64,000 nt of DNA from Patescibacteria group bacterium (GCA_038065555.1 JBBTQS010000003.1:26266-90265), one strand, 5' to 3'; positions 18,272 through 36,188 are shown, numbered from the stretch's first letter. The notes: a model not told the origin generated them from the letters alone. Numbers and translations are program-made.

Positions 18272-18275
18272 GCGG

Positions 18276-25472: not shown

Positions 25473-26229
25473 AACTCTTTCGACCTGATTCTTTGCGCTG
25501 CGCCTTTGCTCCGACAAATGCGAAATGAAAGAGCGTGCGCAATGTTTGTGCGAGTCGCTTGCTCTCAATAATTGCCGAATACATTTTGCCCTCGAATGTA
25601 ACCAAATTGATTTTGTCTCCGTACACACCGATGTGTGCCTTGAACTCGCCGTCTTTGCCCGCCACATAGTAGCGCTCTCCACTATCACTACTCCCACTTG
25701 TACCACCATAGAGTCCACGCATCCGCACGGAACGCTTGCGTAGGATGTTACGCAGCGGCTGCAAATCTTGTGGTGTGAGCACGGTGAAGAGTGCGTCGGC
25801 ATCAGCGATCTCGTCCATTTCCTTGAAGTCCGTGTTCGCCCAATCTTCCATGATTGCACGTACACCTTCCTTGCCTTCGAAGAGGCGAACAATAGGCTTG
25901 TCCCCGCCAGCCTGCAGTGTCAGCTCTGGGAGCATCTGTTCGAGATCAGCAATCTTGCCAGCAACGTCACTATGGTACCGATGCGCGTACGCAATGAGCT
26001 TGTTAGGTTGTTCTGCTGCAAAATAGCGCTTCTTGCCACGCATCACATTGGTGAACAACCCGCGCTCTGTGAGCGCGTCCACTGCGGTATACACTGCCTG
26101 GCGCGACAGATGCGTTGCCTTCGTGAAATCCAGAATAGTGCCAGCTCCACGAGTGAGGCCAGCCACATAGACTTTGATTTCACTGTCCAATAGGCCCAGT
26201 GAGCGCAAAAGCGGAGCAAGATCTTTCAT
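25471..26229 (-). CDS. TrmB-family transcriptional regulator (paralog 4)
   Basis: Start ATG 26227-26229 (MKDLAPLLRSLGLLDSEIKVYVAGLTRGAGTILDFTKATHLSRQAVYTAVDALTERGLF). TrmB C-terminal domain. Confidence 0.8.
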   Translation of the reverse strand: MKDLAPLLRSLGLLDSEIKVYVAGLTRGAGTILDFTKATHLSRQAVYTAVDALTERGLFTNVMRGKKRYFAAEQPNKLIAYAHRYHSDVAGKIADLEQMLPELTLQAGGDKPIVRLFEGKEGVRAIMEDWANTDFKEMDEIADADALFTVLTPQDLQPLRNILRKRSVRMRGLYGGTSGSSDSGERYYVAGKDGEFKAHIGVYGDKINLVTFEGKMYSAIIESKRLAQTLRTLFHFAFVGAKAQRKESGRKS

Positions 26230-26340
26230 ATTTAGTACGTTTTTACAAGTGTAGCACATGGGGATAAAAACGCCAGAATAACAAAAAGACCCACCCGGAT
26301 GGTGAGGTCGCCAAATAATTCAAAGCGATCTCGCACTCAA

Positions 26341-26649
26341 TCACACTTCGTGATTGTTCAACATCTTTGCGATGTCATGGCGATGATCATCGGTGATCTG
26401 CATATGACGCAATAGCTGCTGGTTGATACCAGTTACTTTGGCTTCCAGACTTTCCAATCCATCACTCAAACGATCCTCGAGCTTGCTCAACCGAGTATTG
26501 GTCTCACAAAATCGATCCTCAACACGCTCAGCATATGCGTGGACGAATATAGACAATTCTGAAATTTGTTCAGTTATCTTATCAAATTTTTGATCAATGG
26601 TGAGTCGGACAGTGGATTGCATACTATAAATGATGGTGGTTAGTCCCAT
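26341..26649 (-). CDS. hypothetical coiled-coil protein
   Basis: ATG 26647-26649 (MGLTTIIYSMQSTVRL...), heptad-like, last gene of the fba operon. The longer track ORF overlaps fba and is rejected. Confidence 0.35.
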   Translation of the reverse strand: MGLTTIIYSMQSTVRLTIDQKFDKITEQISELSIFVHAYAERVEDRFCETNTRLSKLEDRLSDGLESLEAKVTGINQQLLRHMQITDDHRHDIAKMLNNHEV

Positions 26650-26704
26650 TGCACTCGGGAGTACACCACCGTACCGCCCAAGTTTTGTCACTGTCAATTG
26701 TGGA

Positions 26705-27613
26705 CTACTTCCCAGCGCTTCCGAACATGCGCAACTTCTTCTCGACAACTGCTTGCACTGCATCGCGAGCTGCACTCGTGTACACGCGTGGATCGAACTC
26801 GCGTGCGTTCTTCGCAAGCGCTGTGCGTAGCGCACTCGTATATGCCAATCGCAAATCAGTATCAATATTAATTTTGGTAATTCCCGTCTTGATTGCCTTC
26901 TTGATGTCTGCGTCGCTCATGCCTTCTGCTTTGGACAAGCCCATCTTCTTTGCGAGCTTTGGATCCACACTGCTTGCGCCGTGCAACACGAGAGGCACAT
27001 TCACTGCAGACGCGATTGCTGCGAGCCGCTTCACATCCAACTTCCCTGCAATTCCTGTGTGTTTGAATGCACCATGTGCTGTTCCCACAGACACAGCGAG
27101 TGCATCACACCCAGTCTTGTCCACGAATTCTGCGGCTTGCGCAGGATCGGTGTAGAACGCGTCGCGATTCTTCACACTAATCTTGTCCTCACGACCAGGG
27201 ATCGGTCCGAGTTCTGCTTCAACAGAGATCCCCGCGGCGTGCGCCTCGTCCACAATCTTCTTCACAGTCTTGATATTGTCCTTGAATGCGAGATGCGACG
27301 CGTCGATCATCACACTGGTGTAATACCCCGATGCAATCGCAGCACGCACGAGACGCACATCGTGACCATGATCGAGATGCACTACCACTGGCACCTTCAC
27401 CGACTGCGATGCAACCCACGAAATCACACCGAGATACACCATGCCTGCGTATTCGATCGCGCCACCACTTGTCTGCAATACCACAGGCGACTTCGCTCGC
27501 TCAGCCGCTGCAACAATTGCCTGCGCTGTCTCCATGGAACTGAAATTAAATGCACCAACTGCATACTTGTGCAGTTGGGCATGGGGCAAAATATCAGTGA
27601 GGGTTGCGCGCAT
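26705..27613 (-). CDS. fba: class II fructose-1,6-bisphosphate aldolase
   Basis: Characteristic HLDHG, 'GFTSVMIDASH'-like and C-terminal 'LVLHGASSV' motifs. Confidence 0.9.
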   Translation of the reverse strand: MRATLTDILPHAQLHKYAVGAFNFSSMETAQAIVAAAERAKSPVVLQTSGGAIEYAGMVYLGVISWVASQSVKVPVVVHLDHGHDVRLVRAAIASGYYTSVMIDASHLAFKDNIKTVKKIVDEAHAAGISVEAELGPIPGREDKISVKNRDAFYTDPAQAAEFVDKTGCDALAVSVGTAHGAFKHTGIAGKLDVKRLAAIASAVNVPLVLHGASSVDPKLAKKMGLSKAEGMSDADIKKAIKTGITKINIDTDLRLAYTSALRTALAKNAREFDPRVYTSAARDAVQAVVEKKLRMFGSAGK

Positions 27614-27624
27614 ACATGCTCCAA

Positions 27625-28602
27625 TTATGAAATTTTTTTCGGCGTAATCCCTTTGCCGTACGTGCGATAGAACGTCTCGATCTCACGACGATGCAAGAGA
27701 CCATCTTGCGGGCCAATATGCAGTATAACACTACTACTGTTAGCTGCGCCCCAAGTCAGCGCCGTCGGAAGGTCCTTACCCTCATTGAGCGCGGCAATGA
27801 CACCAACAGCAAACGAATCTCCCGCACCAGTTCGCTCAACTACTTTTGTGCGCAGAATCGGCATGAAGAACATGTCCTCGCCGTCATACGCAGTGGCACC
27901 GTTAGGACCATCCGTGATGAAGACCATTGCTGCACCGAGCTTGTAGAGCGCGCGCAAACTTTCTTTGATCGATTTCTTCCCCACAATACGAGCGGCCTCT
28001 TCGACGTTCACAAAGAGTGCGTGTGTGACTGCGATAACTTTCTTCACCTCGGTCACGCCTTCGAGAAATTGATACGTTCCAGGATTGTACGCAAGACGAG
28101 TGCCTGTGCGTTCCACATGCGCAATGACTTGTTTGTTGTACGCCATATGCCCCGCGGCGAGACTCGTGAAATACACCCACTTCGACCGTGGCAACTTGGG
28201 TAGTCGATACGTGCGTGGTGCGTGATACACGAGAATGGTGCGATCTCCCTGGAAGCGAATCACAGTCGACGCGTTCGTCGCATTCTTTCGATCACGCTCT
28301 ACGAACTCGCGCGAGACTTTGTTCTCAACCAGCGCTTGCACAATTGCATCTCCGCTCTGATCTACTCCGAGAATCGTATGAATCGCAGTGCGCAACCCGA
28401 GTCGCGCGCAGCCAATCGCGTTGTTCGCGGCGTTGCCGGCTACTTTTTGTACCATGTTCGAGACAGGCAGCTTGTCGCCGTAGCGCAACTGGAGCAAACA
28501 GTTCGTACGATCGATGGAGCATGCAAGTGATGCGTCTCCAATCTCAATGAGAGTGTCGATCGTAGCATCGCCCAATGAAATAATATCCAACATACACAAC
28601 AA
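27625..28602 (-). CDS. PfkB-family carbohydrate kinase
   Basis: Ribokinase-like motifs: 'GGNAANNA'-like (AGNAANNAIGCARLG) and C-terminal 'TGAGDSFAVGVIAAL'. Confidence 0.8.
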   Translation of the reverse strand: MLCMLDIISLGDATIDTLIEIGDASLACSIDRTNCLLQLRYGDKLPVSNMVQKVAGNAANNAIGCARLGLRTAIHTILGVDQSGDAIVQALVENKVSREFVERDRKNATNASTVIRFQGDRTILVYHAPRTYRLPKLPRSKWVYFTSLAAGHMAYNKQVIAHVERTGTRLAYNPGTYQFLEGVTEVKKVIAVTHALFVNVEEAARIVGKKSIKESLRALYKLGAAMVFITDGPNGATAYDGEDMFFMPILRTKVVERTGAGDSFAVGVIAALNEGKDLPTALTWGAANSSSVILHIGPQDGLLHRREIETFYRTYGKGITPKKIS

Positions 28603-28604
28603 AA

Positions 28605-29588
28605 CTATTTTTTTCGGACTACGGCGCGTGCTGCAGCAACAATATTCTTTGCTTGCATGCCGTAGAGCTCCAACAACTCATCCGGTGTTCCTGACTGACC
28701 AAACGTATCATGCATTCCAACAGGAATAATCGGTACAGGCATTGTCTGTGCAAGTGTTTCTGCCACTGCCCCAAAGAGACCTCCAGTAATTTGATGCTCC
28801 TCCACAGTCACAACACATCCTGTTTTTTTCACCGACGCGAGGAGTGTCTTCTCATCAAATGGCTTGAGACTAGGCATGTTGATGACTTCTGCACGAACCC
28901 CCGACTTGAGAAGTACCTGTGCCGCATGGAGTGTTTCGTACAACAGCGGACCACATGCAACAAGTGTGACATCCTCCCCCTGCGAAAATACTTCTGCCTT
29001 GCCAATAGCAAAGGGTGATTTCGCCGTGGTGATGACTGCAGTCTTCTCACGTGCAAATCGTACGTACACCGGGCCATCATACAACGCTGCTGCATGTATC
29101 GCCTTGCGTGTCTCTTCCATATCGCATGGTGCGAGCACCACCATGTTCGGCAGCACTCGCATAATCGCCATATCTTCAAGCGCCTGATGCGTTGCGCCAT
29201 CAGGCCCCACCGAAATCCCCGCATGCGCACCCATGATCTTCACATTCGTGTTGGAATAACACACAGAGACACGAATCTGATCCCAATTGCGTCCAGGCGA
29301 GAACACCGCATAACTAGAAATGAACGGGACAAACCCTTCTGCAGCCATCCCCGCTGCAATCCCTGCCATATTTTGTTCCGCAACACCTACTTCAATAAAT
29401 CGTTCTGGAAATTTCTCTCGAAACCAGTGCGAACGTGTGGACTCAGTGAGATCGCAACACAATACTGCGATATTTGGATTCAACTCCCCCGCCTCAACGA
29501 CACCATGGCCATAGCCATCACGCGTCAACCCATACTCAGGTTTGCTGAGGAGGTTTGGTGCCAAATGTTTTACCAGAGGAATGATCAT
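28605..29588 (-). CDS. tkt: transketolase, C-terminal (pyrimidine-binding) subunit
   Basis: Start ATG 29586-29588 overlaps the N-subunit stop (ATGA). Matches the Pyr and C-terminal domains of split transketolase. Confidence 0.85.
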   Translation of the reverse strand: MIIPLVKHLAPNLLSKPEYGLTRDGYGHGVVEAGELNPNIAVLCCDLTESTRSHWFREKFPERFIEVGVAEQNMAGIAAGMAAEGFVPFISSYAVFSPGRNWDQIRVSVCYSNTNVKIMGAHAGISVGPDGATHQALEDMAIMRVLPNMVVLAPCDMEETRKAIHAAALYDGPVYVRFAREKTAVITTAKSPFAIGKAEVFSQGEDVTLVACGPLLYETLHAAQVLLKSGVRAEVINMPSLKPFDEKTLLASVKKTGCVVTVEEHQITGGLFGAVAETLAQTMPVPIIPVGMHDTFGQSGTPDELLELYGMQAKNIVAAARAVVRKK

Positions 29589-29589
29589 A

Positions 29590-30447
29590 TTATTCGTGTT
29601 CGCTCCGAACTTTGCCACCGAGGGTTCGCAATTGATGCAACGCGCGCTTTGCTTCGTCCTTCGCAGGAGTTTTGCCATGCCAATTGTAATCGAACTCCAT
29701 GAAATCTACCCCCTTACCTGGAATCGTGTGCGCAATAATTGCTACCGGACGTTCATAGATAGCGCGTGCTTCATCACAGGCATCAACAATTTGGCGAATA
29801 TTGTGCCCATCAATCTCAATCACGTGGAAGTTGAACGCCGCGAACTTCGCAGCGAGCGGCTCAATAGGCGCCACAATCTCTGTGTTACCGTCGATTTGAA
29901 TATTATTGCGATCAACAATGACCGTGAGACGATGCAGCGGCTTGTTGCCAGCGAGCATCATTGCTTCCCAGTATTGTCCCTCCTGAATTTCACCATCTGA
30001 TGTGAGCAAAAATGTCTCATACGTTCGTTTGCGCATTTGTCCCGCAAGCGCCACACCCACAGCAACCGACGTACCTTGTCCCAACGGACCGCCAGTATTC
30101 TCAATACCAGGCAACGCACCGCGGTGTGGATGTCCTTGCAATCGCGTATGCAATTTGCGCAGTGTCTTCAACTCCTTCTTTGTAAAATACCCCGCATGCG
30201 CAAGTGTTGCGTACCACACCGGACAAATATGACCATTGCTGAGGATTACACGATCACGATCTTCCCAATCAGGCTTCTTCGCATCGTGATGCAAAATATG
30301 AAAGTAAAGCGCTGTAAAAATATCCGCCATCCCAAGTGGCCCAGCCGTGTGCCCTGATCCTGCAGCAACCAACATCTCGATAACATCTTTGCGAATCGCA
30401 GTTGCAATTCGCTCGAGCTGTTGCACTTTGGAATCGTGAATGGGCAT
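29590..30447 (-). CDS. tkt: transketolase, N-terminal (TPP-binding) subunit
   Basis: Start at internal ATG (MPIHDSKVQQLE...). TPP motif 'GSGHTAGPLGM... GDGE(I)QEG' and 'HxxGKTP'. Confidence 0.85.
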   Translation of the reverse strand: MPIHDSKVQQLERIATAIRKDVIEMLVAAGSGHTAGPLGMADIFTALYFHILHHDAKKPDWEDRDRVILSNGHICPVWYATLAHAGYFTKKELKTLRKLHTRLQGHPHRGALPGIENTGGPLGQGTSVAVGVALAGQMRKRTYETFLLTSDGEIQEGQYWEAMMLAGNKPLHRLTVIVDRNNIQIDGNTEIVAPIEPLAAKFAAFNFHVIEIDGHNIRQIVDACDEARAIYERPVAIIAHTIPGKGVDFMEFDYNWHGKTPAKDEAKRALHQLRTLGGKVRSEHE

Positions 30448-30548
30448 AGCCCCGCAATTATAACACAAGAGCGCCGATGGATGTTGAATTCCACTGGCGC
30501 TCCCGAGGTTGTATTGCGTCTCATTCGTTACAGACGCAACGTGTGGTG

Positions 30549-31163
30549 TCAGGCAGCGACGATGCTCGTGCACAAGTCACGAACAAAGTCCTCCCACACG
30601 ACGCCGGCATGCAGTCGGATCGTACGCGTTCCATAGACCATCTTGATGGCACAGTCCGGCGGAACGTAGAGAATCTCGACATCCGACGGGATGCTCCCGT
30701 TGGTGGACACGAGTCGGTGTACGTAACCACCTTCTCGTCCGAGATCCGCATGTGGATGCACCACCATGATCTCGCGAGCGAAGGAGTTGCGCATCATGAG
30801 AAGGAGTACGAGCGCCTTCTTCGCCGTTGCGGTCACGCTTCGGTAGTCGACGTTGAGTGGAACTGGACTGAACCAGCTCTCCACTTCCACGCGCGCTCTC
30901 AGCACCCTGTCAGGTTCGCCAGTCCTGATGGGCATCGGTTGTCCCGACGTAAGCAGTCCCTCGAGCTCGAACTGGCTCACGGGACCGAGGTTCTCCGCCT
31001 TGACCAGCCGACCTTCATGCAGGCGAACGATGCGGAACCCCGGTTCACCAGACTCCGGAGTGAGCGTCACCCGAATCTTCCCCACAGGTGCTGGCGCCCC
31101 ACCTCTCACACAACCGTACGTGAAATGAAGCACCGCGCTCCACGACTCTTCAGCACATGACAT
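30549..31163 (-). CDS. hypothetical protein B of a GC-elevated gene pair
   Basis: ATG 31161-31163 preceded by AAGGAG (spacer 6 nt). 204 aa with HPH...H cluster 'VVHPHADLGREGGYVH'. No family recognised. Confidence 0.5.
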   Translation of the reverse strand: MSCAEESWSAVLHFTYGCVRGGAPAPVGKIRVTLTPESGEPGFRIVRLHEGRLVKAENLGPVSQFELEGLLTSGQPMPIRTGEPDRVLRARVEVESWFSPVPLNVDYRSVTATAKKALVLLLMMRNSFAREIMVVHPHADLGREGGYVHRLVSTNGSIPSDVEILYVPPDCAIKMVYGTRTIRLHAGVVWEDFVRDLCTSIVAA

Positions 31164-31232
31164 GTCTCTCTCCTTGTGTGAACCATCGAATACACGCTGC
31201 ACCATGCAGACGCATACATCTTGCTTTCAGCT

Positions 31233-31994
31233 CTACAGCTTTCGGCGTTGTCGCAGAACACTGAGCACTGCGAACACTTGCGTCAGATGCTCATTGGCTT
31301 CGCTGCGGGCGCGGCCTCCATGACCCACCCCCGGATCTCCGTCTACGATGATCTCCATGAGTTCGTGATACGTCACCACGAATTCGCGCGGACCCAGATT
31401 TGCCACAAGCTTTGCCCACGTGTCGTCATCGAGTACGAGTACTTGTTCTCCGTTGCGCTTGAAGCAGAATCGGTTCTCATCCTGAATGATCTCAGGCCCC
31501 TCCAGCAACCCCGCTTCGATTGCTTCCCGAACGAGATCCCCGTTGCGCACCGACTGCACTCCCGCCTTGAGATTGGATGCACTTGCCTCGAACGACGGAG
31601 CCACGAGCACCCCCTTCTTGATCTCCCGTGCAGGATCAGTGAGTGACGCTCCTGGATTTCCTCCACCGAACTTCGCCTGAACCACGATGTGCTCCATGCG
31701 CCGATCTGTGAAGAGCACGATGTACCCCGGCTCCTGCGCACGGTAGTCGAGCACTGGATGGCAGTACGTGACCCACGTCTTTGTGCTTGCTACCCAGACT
31801 CGGAACGAGAACGCTCGAACACCGAAGAACGCTTCGCGTTCGTTGACGATGTTACCTGCGTCATCCTGGTACCAGCGAGTCTGTTGGTTCATGCTGCCCA
31901 CCAACAGACCAATGTCAGTAACCTCTGCGGAATCTTGGCACGCTGCGCGGCACCGCGCCAGCTTCGATCTCCACGACTCATGCGTCATACTCAT
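31233..31994 (-). CDS. hypothetical protein A of a GC-elevated gene pair
   Basis: ATG 31992-31994 preceded by a perfect GGAGG (spacer 7 nt). 253 aa; no family recognised. The upstream part of the track ORF lacks an RBS. Confidence 0.5.
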   Translation of the reverse strand: MSMTHESWRSKLARCRAACQDSAEVTDIGLLVGSMNQQTRWYQDDAGNIVNEREAFFGVRAFSFRVWVASTKTWVTYCHPVLDYRAQEPGYIVLFTDRRMEHIVVQAKFGGGNPGASLTDPAREIKKGVLVAPSFEASASNLKAGVQSVRNGDLVREAIEAGLLEGPEIIQDENRFCFKRNGEQVLVLDDDTWAKLVANLGPREFVVTYHELMEIIVDGDPGVGHGGRARSEANEHLTQVFAVLSVLRQRRKL

Positions 31995-32070
31995 CCAATT
32001 GCCTCCATAGCAATCACCTCCGCTCGAAACTGAACGGAGGTGAGCAGAGTACCAATTATGAGCTACTACG

Positions 32071-32997
32071 TCAAGCTGCGCGCGTATTGAGATAACTGAT
32101 AGCAGAGAGTGCTGCAGTAATGCCCATTCCCGTTGCAATACCAATCTGGTAATACGGGATATCCGTAACATCACCTGCTGCAAAAATCCCCGGCACCGAA
32201 GTCCGTCCCAACTTGTCCACTACAATATGTCCCGAAGGCAACTTCTCGACACAGGTGATGAAATCAGACTGTGGAATCAGTCCAATGTGGACAAATACTC
32301 CTTGCACTTCGAGCCGCTTCTCTTCCCCTGATTTGTCCTTGTATACAATGGCTTCTACTTTGTTCTCTCCCTCGATGCGTTGCGTCATGGCCTCGGAGAG
32401 AATCTCGATATTCGGATGCGCAAGAACCTTGTCGATAAGAATTGTCTCACCCTTGAAGGATGGGTACTTGGTGAGCACATAATGCTTCTTCGCGATCTCT
32501 GCCATCATGAGCGCGGATTCGAGTGCAGAGTTGCCTGTGCCGATTGTTGCGGTGATGCGGTTGCGAAAGAGCGGGCCGTCGCACACCGTGCAGTATGTCA
32601 CGCCGCGATGATTGAGTTGCTCTTCGCCTGGCACACCCAAGTACCGAGGATGTGATCCAGTCGCAAGAATAACGCTGAGTGCTTCGTACACTTCTACTTC
32701 GTCTTGTTCGTTCTTTGCGGTGATGCGGAACGTTCCGCCGTCTTGCAATTCAACTGCAGTTACTACTCGTCCAACGCGCGTAGGAACTTCGTTCGCCTTT
32801 TGCTGTTCCTGGAACTTTTGTGACAACTCGATTCCCGTTGTATGAACAATGGCTGGGAAGTTGTCCACGTCCCCCGACACCGCAACTTCGCCCGAGAGAT
32901 CCTTTGCGATCACGAGGAAATTGAGTTTGCGACGGGATGCGTATACTGATGCTGCGGTTCCTGCTGCTGAGCCACCAATGATAATGAGGTCGTACAT
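32071..32997 (-). CDS. trxB: thioredoxin-disulfide reductase
   Basis: FAD motif 'DLIIIGGSAAGTAA', redox-active 'CTVCDG' and NADPH motif 'IGTGNSALE'. Confidence 0.9.
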   Translation of the reverse strand: MYDLIIIGGSAAGTAASVYASRRKLNFLVIAKDLSGEVAVSGDVDNFPAIVHTTGIELSQKFQEQQKANEVPTRVGRVVTAVELQDGGTFRITAKNEQDEVEVYEALSVILATGSHPRYLGVPGEEQLNHRGVTYCTVCDGPLFRNRITATIGTGNSALESALMMAEIAKKHYVLTKYPSFKGETILIDKVLAHPNIEILSEAMTQRIEGENKVEAIVYKDKSGEEKRLEVQGVFVHIGLIPQSDFITCVEKLPSGHIVVDKLGRTSVPGIFAAGDVTDIPYYQIGIATGMGITAALSAISYLNTRAA

Positions 32998-33064
32998 ATG
33001 TCGTATTGTGCTACACCACCATACCAGTCTTGCGCTGTAGCCTCAAGTCCGTCACAATTGCGGC

Positions 33065-33772
33065 ATGTACGACTACGCTATTATCATTCCCTGCTTCAAC
33101 GAGGCCCAGGGCATTCAGAATACACACGCGCAACTGTGTGAGTTCTTCGCGCAACCAGAATGGCGCGGTTGTAGCGTAGCGTTGGTGTACGTTAATGACG
33201 GGAGTACAGACACCACAGATGCCACGCTCACCGAACTTTCTGGAGCGAGTGAGCACGCAGCAGTCGCTGTGTTCACACACAGCTATCCGGTCAACCGCGG
33301 CAAAGGCGCTGCGATTCGCGAAGGAGTACAACAAGTGGATGCGTCTCACTACGCGTTCATAGATGCGGATCTCGCATTCCCACTCAGTACATTTGCGCAG
33401 ATGTATGCACTGCGCGACAGTGCAGACTTGATCGCAGGTCAGCGTACTGAGTTACGTTCTGCTCGCCGCATGCGCTGGGCGATTTCTCGCGTAATCCAAT
33501 CACTCACCTCGTGGCTTCTCCATCTCCCCGTGCGTGACACACAGTGCGGCATCAAACAATTCTCTCGCCGCGTTGTCACCACACTCTTCCCACAACTTAC
33601 TGAGGAACGATTTGCGTTCGACGTAGAACTCATTGCACGCGTGCGACAACAGGAATGGCCCATTGCAACACTTCCCGTTCCATTTCGGTACCACTCACAC
33701 TCGTCTGTGCGGTTTGTGGACGGTTTGCGGTTCCTGGTTTCGCTCTTACGCCTTTCGCGCCATTCCCATTGA
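33065..33772 (+). CDS. family-2 glycosyltransferase (DPM1/GtrB-like)
   Basis: 'YAIIIPCFNEAQGI', 'VYVNDGSTD' and 'FIDADL' (DxD) motifs. Confidence 0.75.
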   Translation: MYDYAIIIPCFNEAQGIQNTHAQLCEFFAQPEWRGCSVALVYVNDGSTDTTDATLTELSGASEHAAVAVFTHSYPVNRGKGAAIREGVQQVDASHYAFIDADLAFPLSTFAQMYALRDSADLIAGQRTELRSARRMRWAISRVIQSLTSWLLHLPVRDTQCGIKQFSRRVVTTLFPQLTEERFAFDVELIARVRQQEWPIATLPVPFRYHSHSSVRFVDGLRFLVSLLRLSRHSH

Positions 33773-33823
33773 CAAACAACACAAAAGTGCTACACTCCGG
33801 ACGCCATTATGGAGGCAAATCAG

Positions 33824-34447
33824 ATGAAAATCGTTCATTACGCGTTCGTTCTCAGCACCAAAGCACAACTCCCTGCGATCGCGATTTCAAAAGCCGCCGC
33901 TACAGAAGTCCAAGCAAACTTCACGCTCACACTGCGTCTTCCGGACATCACACGCTGTCTGCCACACATCAGTATTCTCAGCGTATTAGTCGAGGATGAA
34001 GTAGCAGAGGATCAACTCAGACTTCGATTCATGGAGGAAGTACGAACCGCAAAGCTCGACGGCAAGTGGCTCAGCGAAATCAACATCGAGATGACGCGTG
34101 CCAGATACGTCGAAGACCTCGGCTATCTCCAAATCATCACCGATCACCCACACTTCGTTCAGATCCACGAGCTCGCCATCGCAGCGACCAGATCTGTGCA
34201 GATGAAGTCCCCATCTGTGAGGATCGTGTCTGACTGCGGCGACAAATACCGACCGCACCTCACGCTCAGTCACAGCGACGACGTGCAAGGGATCCAACGC
34301 CTGGCGGCAAAGTACACGGAGGAACAGCACTGGGGTGATGAAGTACTGCGACTCCGAACTGTCGAGGTGACAAGATACGAGGTAAGACTGGATCATCGCG
34401 GGACATTCCCCGGTGGACGCGAAATCATCAGTAACCCGTACTCGTAG
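33824..34447 (+). CDS. 2H phosphoesterase superfamily protein (LigT-like)
   Basis: Two H-x-T/S-x motifs, 'PHISIL' and 'PHLTLSH'. Start taken at MKIVHYAFVL. Confidence 0.6.
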   Translation: MKIVHYAFVLSTKAQLPAIAISKAAATEVQANFTLTLRLPDITRCLPHISILSVLVEDEVAEDQLRLRFMEEVRTAKLDGKWLSEINIEMTRARYVEDLGYLQIITDHPHFVQIHELAIAATRSVQMKSPSVRIVSDCGDKYRPHLTLSHSDDVQGIQRLAAKYTEEQHWGDEVLRLRTVEVTRYEVRLDHRGTFPGGREIISNPYS

Positions 34448-34541
34448 GACGTCCGAGCGGTTGCACACAGCCGCCCAAACGAGTACCGTTGGTAGTGTGG
34501 CGCCCTTGGCCGCACTAACCACATCATCTATGGAGGACTCC

Positions 34542-35237
34542 ATGCAAAAAATCGCGCTCGTCACTGGCGCAAGCAGTGGCATTGGCGAAGCAGTCGCAAA
34601 AAGGCTTGCGCGTGAAGTCGCTCATGTCATTCTCGTAGGCCGAGACATGGCGCGACTCGACGCTGTTCGTGAAGCCATCGTAGCTGCAGGTGGTTCTGCC
34701 TCGCAGTACTCAGTGGATCTCACCGACAACAATGCTGTGCTGGAATTTAGCACCAAGCTCGCTGCCGCGCACACGCACTTGGACATACTCGTGCAGTGCG
34801 CTGGTGGACTCACGTTCGATACTGATCCGAAGTTCACAGGGAATCCGTTCGCGTCTATCGCAGCGCACATCCAGATGAACTTCACGTCCAAGGTCCTGAT
34901 GCTCAACGCCTGTATCGAGCTCCTCGAGAAGGCGGCGCGTCCAGTGATCCTCGACGTCTCATCGCAAGCATCGAGCTTCCCCGAGGTGACGGACGCGGCT
35001 CATCCATTCGCAGCGCGCACGCATCACGAGCGCGGCTACGTCTGGTCCATGCGAGCTGTCGACGGCATGAATGCAATGATGCAGCGAGACTTCCCGACGT
35101 TCCATGTAGCACTCGTGAACCCGGGACTCATCGCAACACCATTGCAGGCACAACATTTTGCAGATGTTCCGAAGGAGGCAGTCCGAACTCCCGAGAACCT
35201 CGCCGAAGAGATCATCCGCAAGATCAAAGGAGTGTAG
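34542..35237 (+). CDS. SDR-family oxidoreductase
   Basis: ATG 34542 with GGAGG at -10. 'TGASSGIG' cofactor motif, NAG-like 'CAGG' and a catalytic S...YxxxK-like region. Confidence 0.8.
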   Translation: MQKIALVTGASSGIGEAVAKRLAREVAHVILVGRDMARLDAVREAIVAAGGSASQYSVDLTDNNAVLEFSTKLAAAHTHLDILVQCAGGLTFDTDPKFTGNPFASIAAHIQMNFTSKVLMLNACIELLEKAARPVILDVSSQASSFPEVTDAAHPFAARTHHERGYVWSMRAVDGMNAMMQRDFPTFHVALVNPGLIATPLQAQHFADVPKEAVRTPENLAEEIIRKIKGV

Positions 35238-35292
35238 ACTCAACAACAACGCAAGCGCCGCCATCCTTCAGGACTGGCGGCGCTGTTGTTTT

Positions 35293-35790
35293 TTATACAC
35301 GAGATAGGAATCCGCACAGCGCTACAGCAATCGCATCTGCCGCGTCATCCGACTTCGGCATTTCCTTGAGCCGCAGCAACACCTGCACCATGCGCTGCAT
35401 CTGATCCTTCTTCGCACCTCCGTAGCCCGTGATAATTTGCTTGATCTGCAGTGGATTGAACTCACGAATCGCAATTCCAGCACGCGCTGCGGTGAGCATA
35501 ATTACCCCACGCGCATGGCTCACTTGAATTCCTGTTGTGACATTCTTGCCGAAGAAAAGCTGTTCGATCGCCATCGATTCTGGCTGGAACTCTGCAAGCA
35601 ACTTCTCACACGCATCAGCAATTTCTACAAGACGCTGCGAAAATAGCTGTTCCTTCTTCGTCTCCACACATCCATACGCACGAATCGTGAACTGCTCACG
35701 TCCAACTTCCTCAAGTACTGCATACCCCATGCGACCAAATCCCGGGTCAATACCGAGAATACGTCTTCCTACTTCAGATGTACTGCCCAT
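35293..35790 (-). CDS. ruvC: crossover junction endodeoxyribonuclease RuvC
   Basis: 'RILGIDPGFGRMGYAV' N-terminus and a C-terminal 'DAADAIAVALC' catalytic Asp region. Confidence 0.85.
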   Translation of the reverse strand: MGSTSEVGRRILGIDPGFGRMGYAVLEEVGREQFTIRAYGCVETKKEQLFSQRLVEIADACEKLLAEFQPESMAIEQLFFGKNVTTGIQVSHARGVIMLTAARAGIAIREFNPLQIKQIITGYGGAKKDQMQRMVQVLLRLKEMPKSDDAADAIAVALCGFLSRV

Positions 35791-36188
35791 ATTTTTGGTC
35801 GAATACCCATTGCACGTGCAACGAGTAGGCGCGTATTCCCACCAATAAGGTACGGGGGCTCCCCTTCACGAAAAAGAACAACGGGGGCGGGGATACCTGC
35901 ACCTGTTTGGAATCCTTCAATAATTTTGTCCACATCACGCTTAGAACCGATATGCGTGATTACTTCCTGCAGTTGCCACGTAGTGTCACGGGAATCAGTG
36001 TTCATCATTACTTCCCAGTCACTATCACTCAGTGGTTCCAATGCACCCTGTTCGCATGCAACCAAAAGCTCTCCCGCATTCACGTGCAACTCCTCAGCAG
36101 TACGAAAAAATTCACCCTGTTCAAACTCGCCGGATGGTGCAATCCACTGTGGCTCACGAGGTCCTTTTTCTCCTCCTTCTTCCAACAT
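35769..36188 (-). CDS. hypothetical protein inserted between yebC and ruvC
   Basis: ATG 36186-36188 is 1 nt after the yebC stop. Stop overlaps the ruvC start by 22 nt. 139 aa, acidic N-terminus. Confidence 0.45.
   Translation of the reverse strand: MLEEGGEKGPREPQWIAPSGEFEQGEFFRTAEELHVNAGELLVACEQGALEPLSDSDWEVMMNTDSRDTTWQLQEVITHIGSKRDVDKIIEGFQTGAGIPAPVVLFREGEPPYLIGGNTRLLVARAMGIRPKIWAVHLK

Follow-up and report, generated by a model that had tools for sequence, protein, structure and literature searches.

The NDP-hexose 2,3-dehydratase (EvaA) superfamily, PF03559 (Hexose_dehydrat), includes EvaA, TylX3 and OleV, in which two PF03559 domains are arranged in tandem. Single-domain proteins of this family also exist: 36 of the 80 metagenome PF03559 loci retrieved for this analysis are single-domain, and those of environmental bacteria (e.g. 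P0021, L083 and L146; 191-288 aa) sit in deoxysugar clusters, next to GFO/IDH/MocA oxidoreductases (22 loci) and DegT aminotransferases (16 loci), with RmlA/B/C/D, NAD-dependent epimerases/dehydratases and glycosyltransferases as further neighbours. The activity of EvaA is abolished by mutating either of two residues, E139 or E190 (PMC8987622); the first of them sits in the motif K-M-E-P-G-N, which reads K-x-E-P-G-N in the family.

Another group of described proteins that bears on the locus reported here has the S5 domain 2-like fold, to which the Lon C-terminal domain belongs together with inactive relatives, such as the C-terminal domains of BrxL and RadA/Sms, and ComM. Here, we describe two adjacent genes of a Patescibacteria group bacterium, A and B. 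The product of A is a divergent member of the first family, and the predicted model of the product of B tentatively resembles the second.

Layout and regulatory elements of the locus

The two genes are found in a 64-kb stretch of DNA, which was analysed as a whole and is called the window below, between trxB and a split transketolase gene (Table 1). A preliminary description of the same DNA had reported them as co-directional ORFs with trxB on one side and the transketolase halves on the other, and its coordinates were borne out. In the NCBI records, A corresponds to MEK7648097.1 and B to MEK7648096.1, both of which are listed as "hypothetical protein" of a Patescibacteria group bacterium MAG. 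The NCBI start of A gives a protein of 219 aa; the 253-aa start is preferred here because the first 34 residues are conserved and match the N-terminal helix of the family. Both are real genes, with full-length orthologues and a sense-frame dN/dS well below 1. An antisense ORF of 227 aa (30477-31160) was taken to arise from the high GC of the sense frame, since the dN/dS pattern favours the minus strand. Divergent from trxB lie a GT2 gene, a 2H-phosphoesterase-like gene and an SDR gene. No paralogues of A or B were found in the window, and hhalign detected no relatedness between the two proteins (probability 1.2%).

Table 1. Genes and sequence elements of the locus, numbered from the first letter of the window
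Feature	Coordinates	Strand	Remarks
fba	26705-27613	minus	
PfkB-family kinase gene (pfkB)	27625-28602	minus	
tktC	28605-29585	minus	C-terminal half of split transketolase
tktN	29590-30447	minus	N-terminal half of split transketolase
TGTTATAAT, extended -10-like	30457-30465	minus	9 nt 5' of tktN ATG at 30447, read from sequence
Gene B	30549-31163	minus	204 aa, clade-specific orphan, always directly 3' of A
Shine-Dalgarno AAGGAG of B	31170-31175	minus	6 nt 5' of ATG at 31163, read from sequence
Gene A	31233-31994	minus	253 aa, divergent single-domain EvaA-like (PF03559, Nudix-fold) protein
Shine-Dalgarno GGAGG of A	32002-32006	minus	7 nt 5' of ATG at 31994, read from sequence
Conserved hairpin	32014-32043	minus	inverted repeat between trxB stop codon and Shine-Dalgarno of A
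trxB	32071-32997	minus	
GT2 gene	33065-33772		matched by tblastn in 64-kb window

The strong Shine-Dalgarno sites claimed for the two genes were both confirmed in the sequence. At the position of the site of A, relatives keep GGAGG or AAGGAGG, and the AAGGAG of B is kept in the contigs L081 and L082, with GGAGAG at the equivalent place in L004. Upstream of A, a hairpin is formed by 12-nt arms that have one mismatch, bear CCUCC and GGAGG and enclose a 6-nt loop. For the 91-nt segment around it (31985-32075), the folding energy is -34.4 kcal/mol (z = -4.1). L081, L001 and L004 carry almost the same hairpin, with changes that preserve pairing, even though synonymous sites in the adjacent genes are saturated. 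The window has no second copy of the hairpin, and an Rfam search of positions 26000-36000, the hairpin included, returned no match. Its possible roles are those of a 5' stabiliser, an attenuator or an element that controls the translation of A and B.

The preliminary description had placed the pair inside a trxB/transketolase/fba operon. Such an operon is left unestablished by the conserved hairpin after trxB and by the TGTTATAAT element before tktN, which is kept in L081, L005 and L001, because tkt-pfkB-fba may have a promoter of its own at this element, 3' of B, as its sequence suggests. A generic scan for promoters and terminators found nothing beyond chance between trxB and tkt, and did not report TGTTATAAT either.

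Family, fold and conserved residues of the two proteins

Single-sequence searches with A and B against Pfam, NCBIfam, PADLOC, PHROGs and the PDB gave nothing usable beyond a sub-threshold match of A to PF03559 (17.3 bits, below the gathering cut-off of 25). An exhaustive profile search with A over 1.84 billion representatives, in turn, returned the clade members and 16 distant matches (E from 4e-8 to 7e-4), 15 of which are single-domain-sized (208-249 aa); the best 10 of the 16 (P0012-P0021) are all assigned to PF03559 by Pfam scan (1e-13 to 2e-38). Aligned by hhalign, the A clade matches single-domain PF03559 proteins with 99.9% probability (E = 3e-32, 206 columns), and a profile made of the A clade and its distant homologues matches both domains of EvaA (4J7G; E = 5.7e-52). 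The AF2 model of A has a pLDDT of 91.4 and a pTM of 0.87, and Foldseek ranks EvaA first among PDB structures (4j7h/4j7g; E = 3e-8), ahead of Nudix hydrolases of sugar nucleotides such as GDP-mannose hydrolase and ADP-ribose pyrophosphatase. The profile and structure searches that had been suggested as a check thus place A in PF03559, as an EvaA-like protein with a Nudix fold. The preliminary statement that neither protein could be assigned to a family therefore no longer holds for A, and stands for B, which remains an orphan; A had also been called acidic, which it barely is (pI 6.1).

The Nudix-like fold is common to A and EvaA, and A keeps the N-terminal W..WL..R helix and the VQAK, APxxxAS.SN, QD..RF.K.N and NEHL motifs of the EvaA family. 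It has one PF03559 domain, whereas EvaA has two, and it resembles the single-domain proteins of environmental bacteria in size and architecture. Those proteins retain E-P-G-N, unlike A: in the single-domain outgroup sequences E-P-G is present throughout, whereas the A clade has K-F-G-G-G-N, in which the equivalent of Glu139 is G110 (within KFGGGNPGA), invariant in all 7 sequences of the clade. E190 lies opposite Q171 in an HMMER alignment of uncertain register, beside the invariant D172 of QDENRF, the clade's version of the family motif QDGGRF; an acidic side chain is available nearby, in D172 or E173. The A clade is also devoid of the family motifs REV..W.QP and HGG, and has a 9-residue insertion or loop with the invariant residues D120, R123, K126 and K127.

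By descent and fold, protein A thus belongs to the family, but it fails two functional hallmarks of PF03559. We infer that A has ceased to be a 2,3-dehydratase of the canonical kind, though provisionally, since catalysis could be restored by the clade-specific loop with its invariant D120, or by D172/E173. Most likely, A still binds a ligand of the nucleoside-diphosphate-sugar type, be it as a re-tooled enzyme or, without catalysis, as a subunit for binding or regulation.

The genomic surroundings of A differ as well from those of its relatives. When representatives of eight neighbour families (GFO/IDH/MocA, DegT, NAD-epimerase/4,6-dehydratase, RmlA, RmlC, GT1, GT2 and SDR) were compared with the 64-kb window by tblastn, only the GT2 gene was matched. 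Within its 64 kb, the window is without genes for dTDP-sugar synthesis, 3-ketoreductase or DegT aminotransferase, unlike the context of EvaA. Conversely, none of the single-domain PF03559 loci has a B-like neighbour.

Protein B has no relatives beyond its 5 clusters by any sequence method, and neither B nor its 5 family members gave a sequence match in Pfam, NCBIfam or the PDB. It is neutral (pI 7.0) and stands alone, with no AAA+ or other fused domain, unlike Lon-type proteins. Its model, built from 5 sequences, reaches a pLDDT of 64, and Foldseek searches with this low-confidence model gave matches, none of them significant, to EF-G domain IV, GHMP enzymes, uS9, MutL and Lon, which belong to one fold class. 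The fold of B is therefore only tentatively predicted to be S5-domain-2-like or Lon-C-like. To the Lon domain itself B has no sequence or profile similarity, and the conserved Lon Ser-Lys dyad was absent in a manual motif comparison at the sequence level; S109, the sole Ser of B in a D-x-x-S context, is His or Leu in orthologues.

Lys, Arg and His are frequent among the invariant residues of B (K29, R47, K115, K116, H149, R150, K174, R180, R183 and H185), and there is a G-G-A-P-x-P-V-G-K loop. By inference from the sequence, the basic residues and the loop would form a putative site for an anionic ligand. An HPH...H cluster had been noted in B earlier; its HPH is not conserved in orthologues, in which H149 alone is kept, and a metal site at this motif was ruled out for the same reason.

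Distribution, evolutionary rates and base composition

Among 5.8 billion proteins, 6-7 clusters of homologues (at 92-41% identity) were found for A, and 5 clusters for B. The tight pairing reported earlier is upheld, in that A and B are conserved together and confined to a very narrow lineage. The full order trxB-A-B-tktN-tktC-pfkB-fba is present in L001, L002, L004 and L006, and the contigs L003, L081 (which stops inside tktC) and L005 (which begins at B) agree with the order trxB-A-B-tkt as far as they reach; L082 shows the adjacency of A and B only. The synteny comparison that had been called for thus finds the same locus in every readable relative (L001, L002, L003, L004, L005, L006 and L081), and the composition of the pair is raised there as well, not typical. 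No presence/absence polymorphism of the pair was seen among the clade members. One further homologue of A, 44% identical, lies on L163, an AT-richer contig of 1 kb, between non-coding sequences; the 183 bp downstream of it contain no B, so A can occur without an adjacent B.

In the next available relatives (Uhrbacteria, Paceibacterota and others), tktN is 54-62% identical, and neither trxB nor A or B lies beside tkt; A- or B-like ORFs were found near tkt in none of 74 tkt loci of other genomes. Because trxB is not beside tkt in these relatives, it cannot be shown that trxB-tkt was an older operon that was later interrupted.

Between the window and L001 or L004, trxB is 95% identical, tktN 93-94% and fba 91-92%, as against 51-68% for A and 44% for B. 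Compared with L081, the dS of A and B is 0.15-0.22 and that of the flanks 0.30-0.47; compared with L005, the values are 0.20 and 0.09-0.28. Over all close comparisons, the dS of A and B (0.15-0.24) is not above that of the flanks (0.09-0.47); the pair and its neighbours have therefore diverged together, without alleles having been swapped in. The dN/dS of the pair is 0.25-0.50 in close comparisons, against 0.02-0.05 in the flanks, and at larger distances A has values of 0.12-0.33 and B of 0.26-0.47. Overall, it amounts to 0.12-0.33 for A, 0.25-0.50 for B and 0.02-0.07 for the housekeeping neighbours, with the ORFs intact in every lineage. Both genes are under purifying selection, and the constraint on them is much weaker than on their neighbours.

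With a GC content of 58.2%, the 1446-bp stretch that holds A and B exceeds every other stretch of equal length in the 64-kb window, whose mean is 52.1%; stretches of this length vary with an sd of 1.8%, which gives z = 3.4. The elevation reported in the preliminary description (about 57%, against about 47% in the tkt genes) is thus confirmed; the figure for the flanks is not, since the tkt genes have 50.4-50.5% GC. Among the 56 genes of the window, B ranks first in GC (z 2.7) and A second (z 2.0), and in GC3 they rank third (0.678, z 1.8) and fourth (0.657, z 1.5), the mean being 0.561 and the sd 0.064. Higher GC3 elsewhere in the window is found in a methyltransferase gene and two unannotated ORFs. 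Codon usage, assessed as Karlin codon bias with simulation-normalised z-scores, is unremarkable, with B the 23rd and A the 29th most deviant of the 56 genes. The z-score check proposed earlier therefore gives a deviant GC content, but not a deviant codon usage. The tkt genes deviate more in codon usage than A or B and are low in GC3 (0.47-0.48), and their position at the low-GC3 end sharpens the local contrast.

The GC3 of the pair is 0.66-0.81 across all clade members. In the relatives it is 0.67-0.81 for A, with the highest value in L004, and 0.67-0.71 for B, against roughly 0.47-0.57 in the flanking housekeeping genes. Synonymous sites are saturated between the window and L001 or L004 (dS > 1.2), and the offset is kept or even higher there, which is the opposite of amelioration; it is thus persistent and not a fading foreign signature. 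The family of A is not high in GC3 by nature, given that the homologue on L163 has a GC3 of 0.45. The less conserved a protein of the locus is, the higher the GC3 of its gene tends to be (12 genes; rho = -0.61, p = 0.036). We read the raised GC as a lasting trait of poorly conserved genes in this lineage and not as a foreign signature.

Origin and possible roles of the pair

The reading that we favour, with somewhat better than even confidence, is that one small Patescibacteria clade has passed on A and B vertically as an accessory pair, composed of a degenerate or re-tooled EvaA-like A and an orphan B, and that they are not a recent insertion. Of the functions offered in the preliminary description, a metabolic accessory fits best, owing to the membership of A in the EvaA superfamily. 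Protein A derives, with its single domain, from the NDP-hexose 2,3-dehydratase family, of which it keeps the fold and most conserved positions, and it would most likely retain the binding of an NDP-sugar-type ligand without the chemistry of Glu139. B, to judge from its strict adjacency, may act as the partner of A, and would either bind an anionic ligand that bears phosphate or supply the chemistry that A lacks. Expression of the pair probably comes from the trxB side, through or behind the CCUCC/GGAGG hairpin.

The earlier reading, in which composition flagged a two-gene module that was acquired horizontally from a GC-richer donor, inserted between trxB and tkt and left with the donor's composition, appears unlikely. 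The GC maximum of the window, the very small number of clusters among billions of proteins and the absence of A and B next to tkt in distant Patescibacteria would fit it, and an ultimate origin of A in a deoxysugar cluster elsewhere is plausible. As a recent event it is contradicted, however, by the identical locus in all relatives with readable context, by a dS equal to or below that of the flanks, by a GC3 that stays high or rises at saturated dS without amelioration, and by ordinary codon usage; other poorly conserved native genes have the same GC3. No donor was identified, no relatives of A or B were found in viral contigs, flanking repeats around the pair are short and at chance level, and the nearest tRNA is at 18274. 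Any such event must predate the clade, at whose base an ancient acquisition or origin is conceivable. Still less probable is a defence pair, another of the options raised earlier, or a toxin-antitoxin-like one, in which a Nudix-like nucleotide-binding component would work with a Lon-like one, as in BrxL or CalpL. The genes are lineage-specific and their dN/dS is 5-15x that of the neighbours, as such a pair would have it, but this ratio is below 1 throughout, no clade member was seen to lack the pair at its fixed locus, and neither protein has a PADLOC (E <= 1) or PHROG match. The neighbours (trxB, tkt, pfkB, fba, GT2 and SDR) include no mobile-element or defence genes, and the likeness of B to Lon is weakened by the unconserved dyad, with S109 replaced in orthologues, and by a low-confidence model for which Foldseek gave nothing significant. 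Apart from the fast evolution and a faint likeness in fold, nothing speaks for defence, which we consider very improbable.

Two further explanations were considered, each of which we hold to be rather improbable. In the first, the genes could be relaxed remnants, A being a former sugar dehydratase stranded by the loss of a deoxysugar pathway in a reduced CPR genome, with both genes drifting and having little or no function. The loss of the catalytic Glu and other family motifs from A, the lack of pathway partners in the 64-kb window and a dN/dS that is high relative to the neighbours point in this direction. Yet pure decay is contradicted by the intact ORFs and a dN/dS well below 1 (0.12-0.5, i.e. 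purifying selection), and the Shine-Dalgarno sites, the conserved upstream hairpin and the many residues that are invariant across lineages with dS above 1.2 also speak against it. Small CPR genomes, moreover, seldom keep useless genes. In the second, A and B may constitute a new, lineage-specific two-protein unit, expressed behind the hairpin and located beside central sugar-phosphate genes. A would be a "pseudo-dehydratase" that has lost the chemistry of EvaA and still recognises an NDP-sugar or related nucleotide; with a basic, S5-domain-2-like B it would form a metabolite sensor or a new kind of enzyme for nucleotide-sugars or sugar phosphates.

For the vertically inherited accessory pair that we favour, the consequences are more modest, and current understanding is unchanged unless a new activity is demonstrated. 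A false lead is removed, in that the local GC contrast at this locus is no mark of recent foreign insertion and there is no defence signature. The hypothetical protein MEK7648097.1 is turned into a testable hypothesis, that of a Glu-less, single-domain EvaA-like protein outside deoxysugar clusters, as judged in the 64-kb window, and MEK7648096.1 is documented as its true orphan partner. The GC3 offset that persists at saturated dS is a small population-genetic observation in its own right. In CPR biology, lineage-specific adaptations of the metabolism or the envelope may be sought among fast-evolving, clade-specific pairs that, like this one, adjoin genes of core carbon metabolism.

Reading frames and gene starts around A and B

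Close to their 5' ends (31960-31979 in A, 31129-31148 in B), A, which encodes a divergent EvaA-like protein, and the orphan gene B have an 11-nt string in common, GAGTCGTGGAG, and the N-termini of both proteins read ..ESW, with the Trp invariant in each family. Beyond this ..ESW start the two proteins show no likeness, and the common beginning, GAGTCGTGGAG included, is probably due to chance. The 227-aa ORF antisense to B was rejected as a gene; it arises as a by-product of B's own GC-rich reading frame.

The mechanical ORFs of tktN and tktC, the halves of the split transketolase, are longer than the genes supported by their orthologues, and the starts assigned to tktN by automatic callers vary among relatives, giving products of 285, 289, 301 or 329 aa.

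Features of the window and of a related locus (L001)
Feature	Position	Strand	Remarks
tktC, mechanical ORF	28605-29678	minus	357 aa, overlaps tktN; orthologue-supported ~327 aa
tktN, mechanical ORF	29590-30573	minus	GTG start at 30573, overlaps B stop
tktN, orthologue-supported start	ATG at 30447	minus	285 aa
TGTTATAAT, extended -10-like	30457-30465	minus	9 nt upstream of tktN ATG
227-aa ORF	30477-31160	plus	antisense to B
8-bp hairpin, TTGCGTCT-N10-AGACGCAA	30514-30539	minus	just 3' of B stop codon
Stem-loop, arms CCUCC / GGAGG	32014-32043	minus	between trxB stop codon and Shine-Dalgarno (SD) site of A
2H-phosphoesterase-like gene	33809-34447	plus	PF13563
210-aa ORF	L001 4050-4682		GC 0.41, GC3 0.34; between ruvC and SDR gene

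Related loci and variable segments

One of the related loci with the A-B pair at the same place, L006 (CAZVGV010000001.1), is titled "uncultured Gammaproteobacteria bacterium" in its public record. This label is probably wrong, because the locus is collinear with the Patescibacteria locus of the window and its housekeeping genes are ~87-95% identical.

The 2H-phosphoesterase-like gene, transcribed divergently from trxB, evolves faster than A and B. Its identity to the positional orthologues in the related loci L001 and L004 is only 30-32%, against 95% for trxB in these loci, and its dN/dS against those orthologues is 0.28-0.46.

The low-GC 210-aa ORF is found in L001, L002 and L003 and is absent from the window, in which the gap between ruvC and the SDR gene is only ~55 bp. 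As a candidate for a real insertion, this ORF ranks ahead of the A-B pair, which the preliminary description had suggested to be a horizontally acquired module.

A strain-level variable spot lies directly downstream of fba (window ~26260-26700; L005 4471-8627; L004 12378-15501). L005 aligns with window positions 31175-26654 at 94.9% nucleotide identity and diverges beyond; at the spot it carries a 748-aa gene, for which no match was found anywhere in the window, and an inverted trmB-like gene. L004 has a low-GC gene of 785 aa there, and the window an AT-rich spacer of 445 bp in place of these genes.

Candidate regulatory elements on either side of A-B

The stem-loop between trxB and A occurs once in the window, has no match in Rfam, and is almost unchanged in relatives with saturated synonymous sites in their coding sequences. 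This element may act as a 5' stabiliser, an attenuator or an anti-SD element.

At the B-tktN junction, the hairpin behind B is found in the window, L081 and L005, but L001 and L004 carry a deletion that removes this segment. The TGTTATAAT motif before tktN is kept in L081, L005 and L001; if it is a promoter, the tkt transcript would be near-leaderless and would form a transcription unit apart from A-B.
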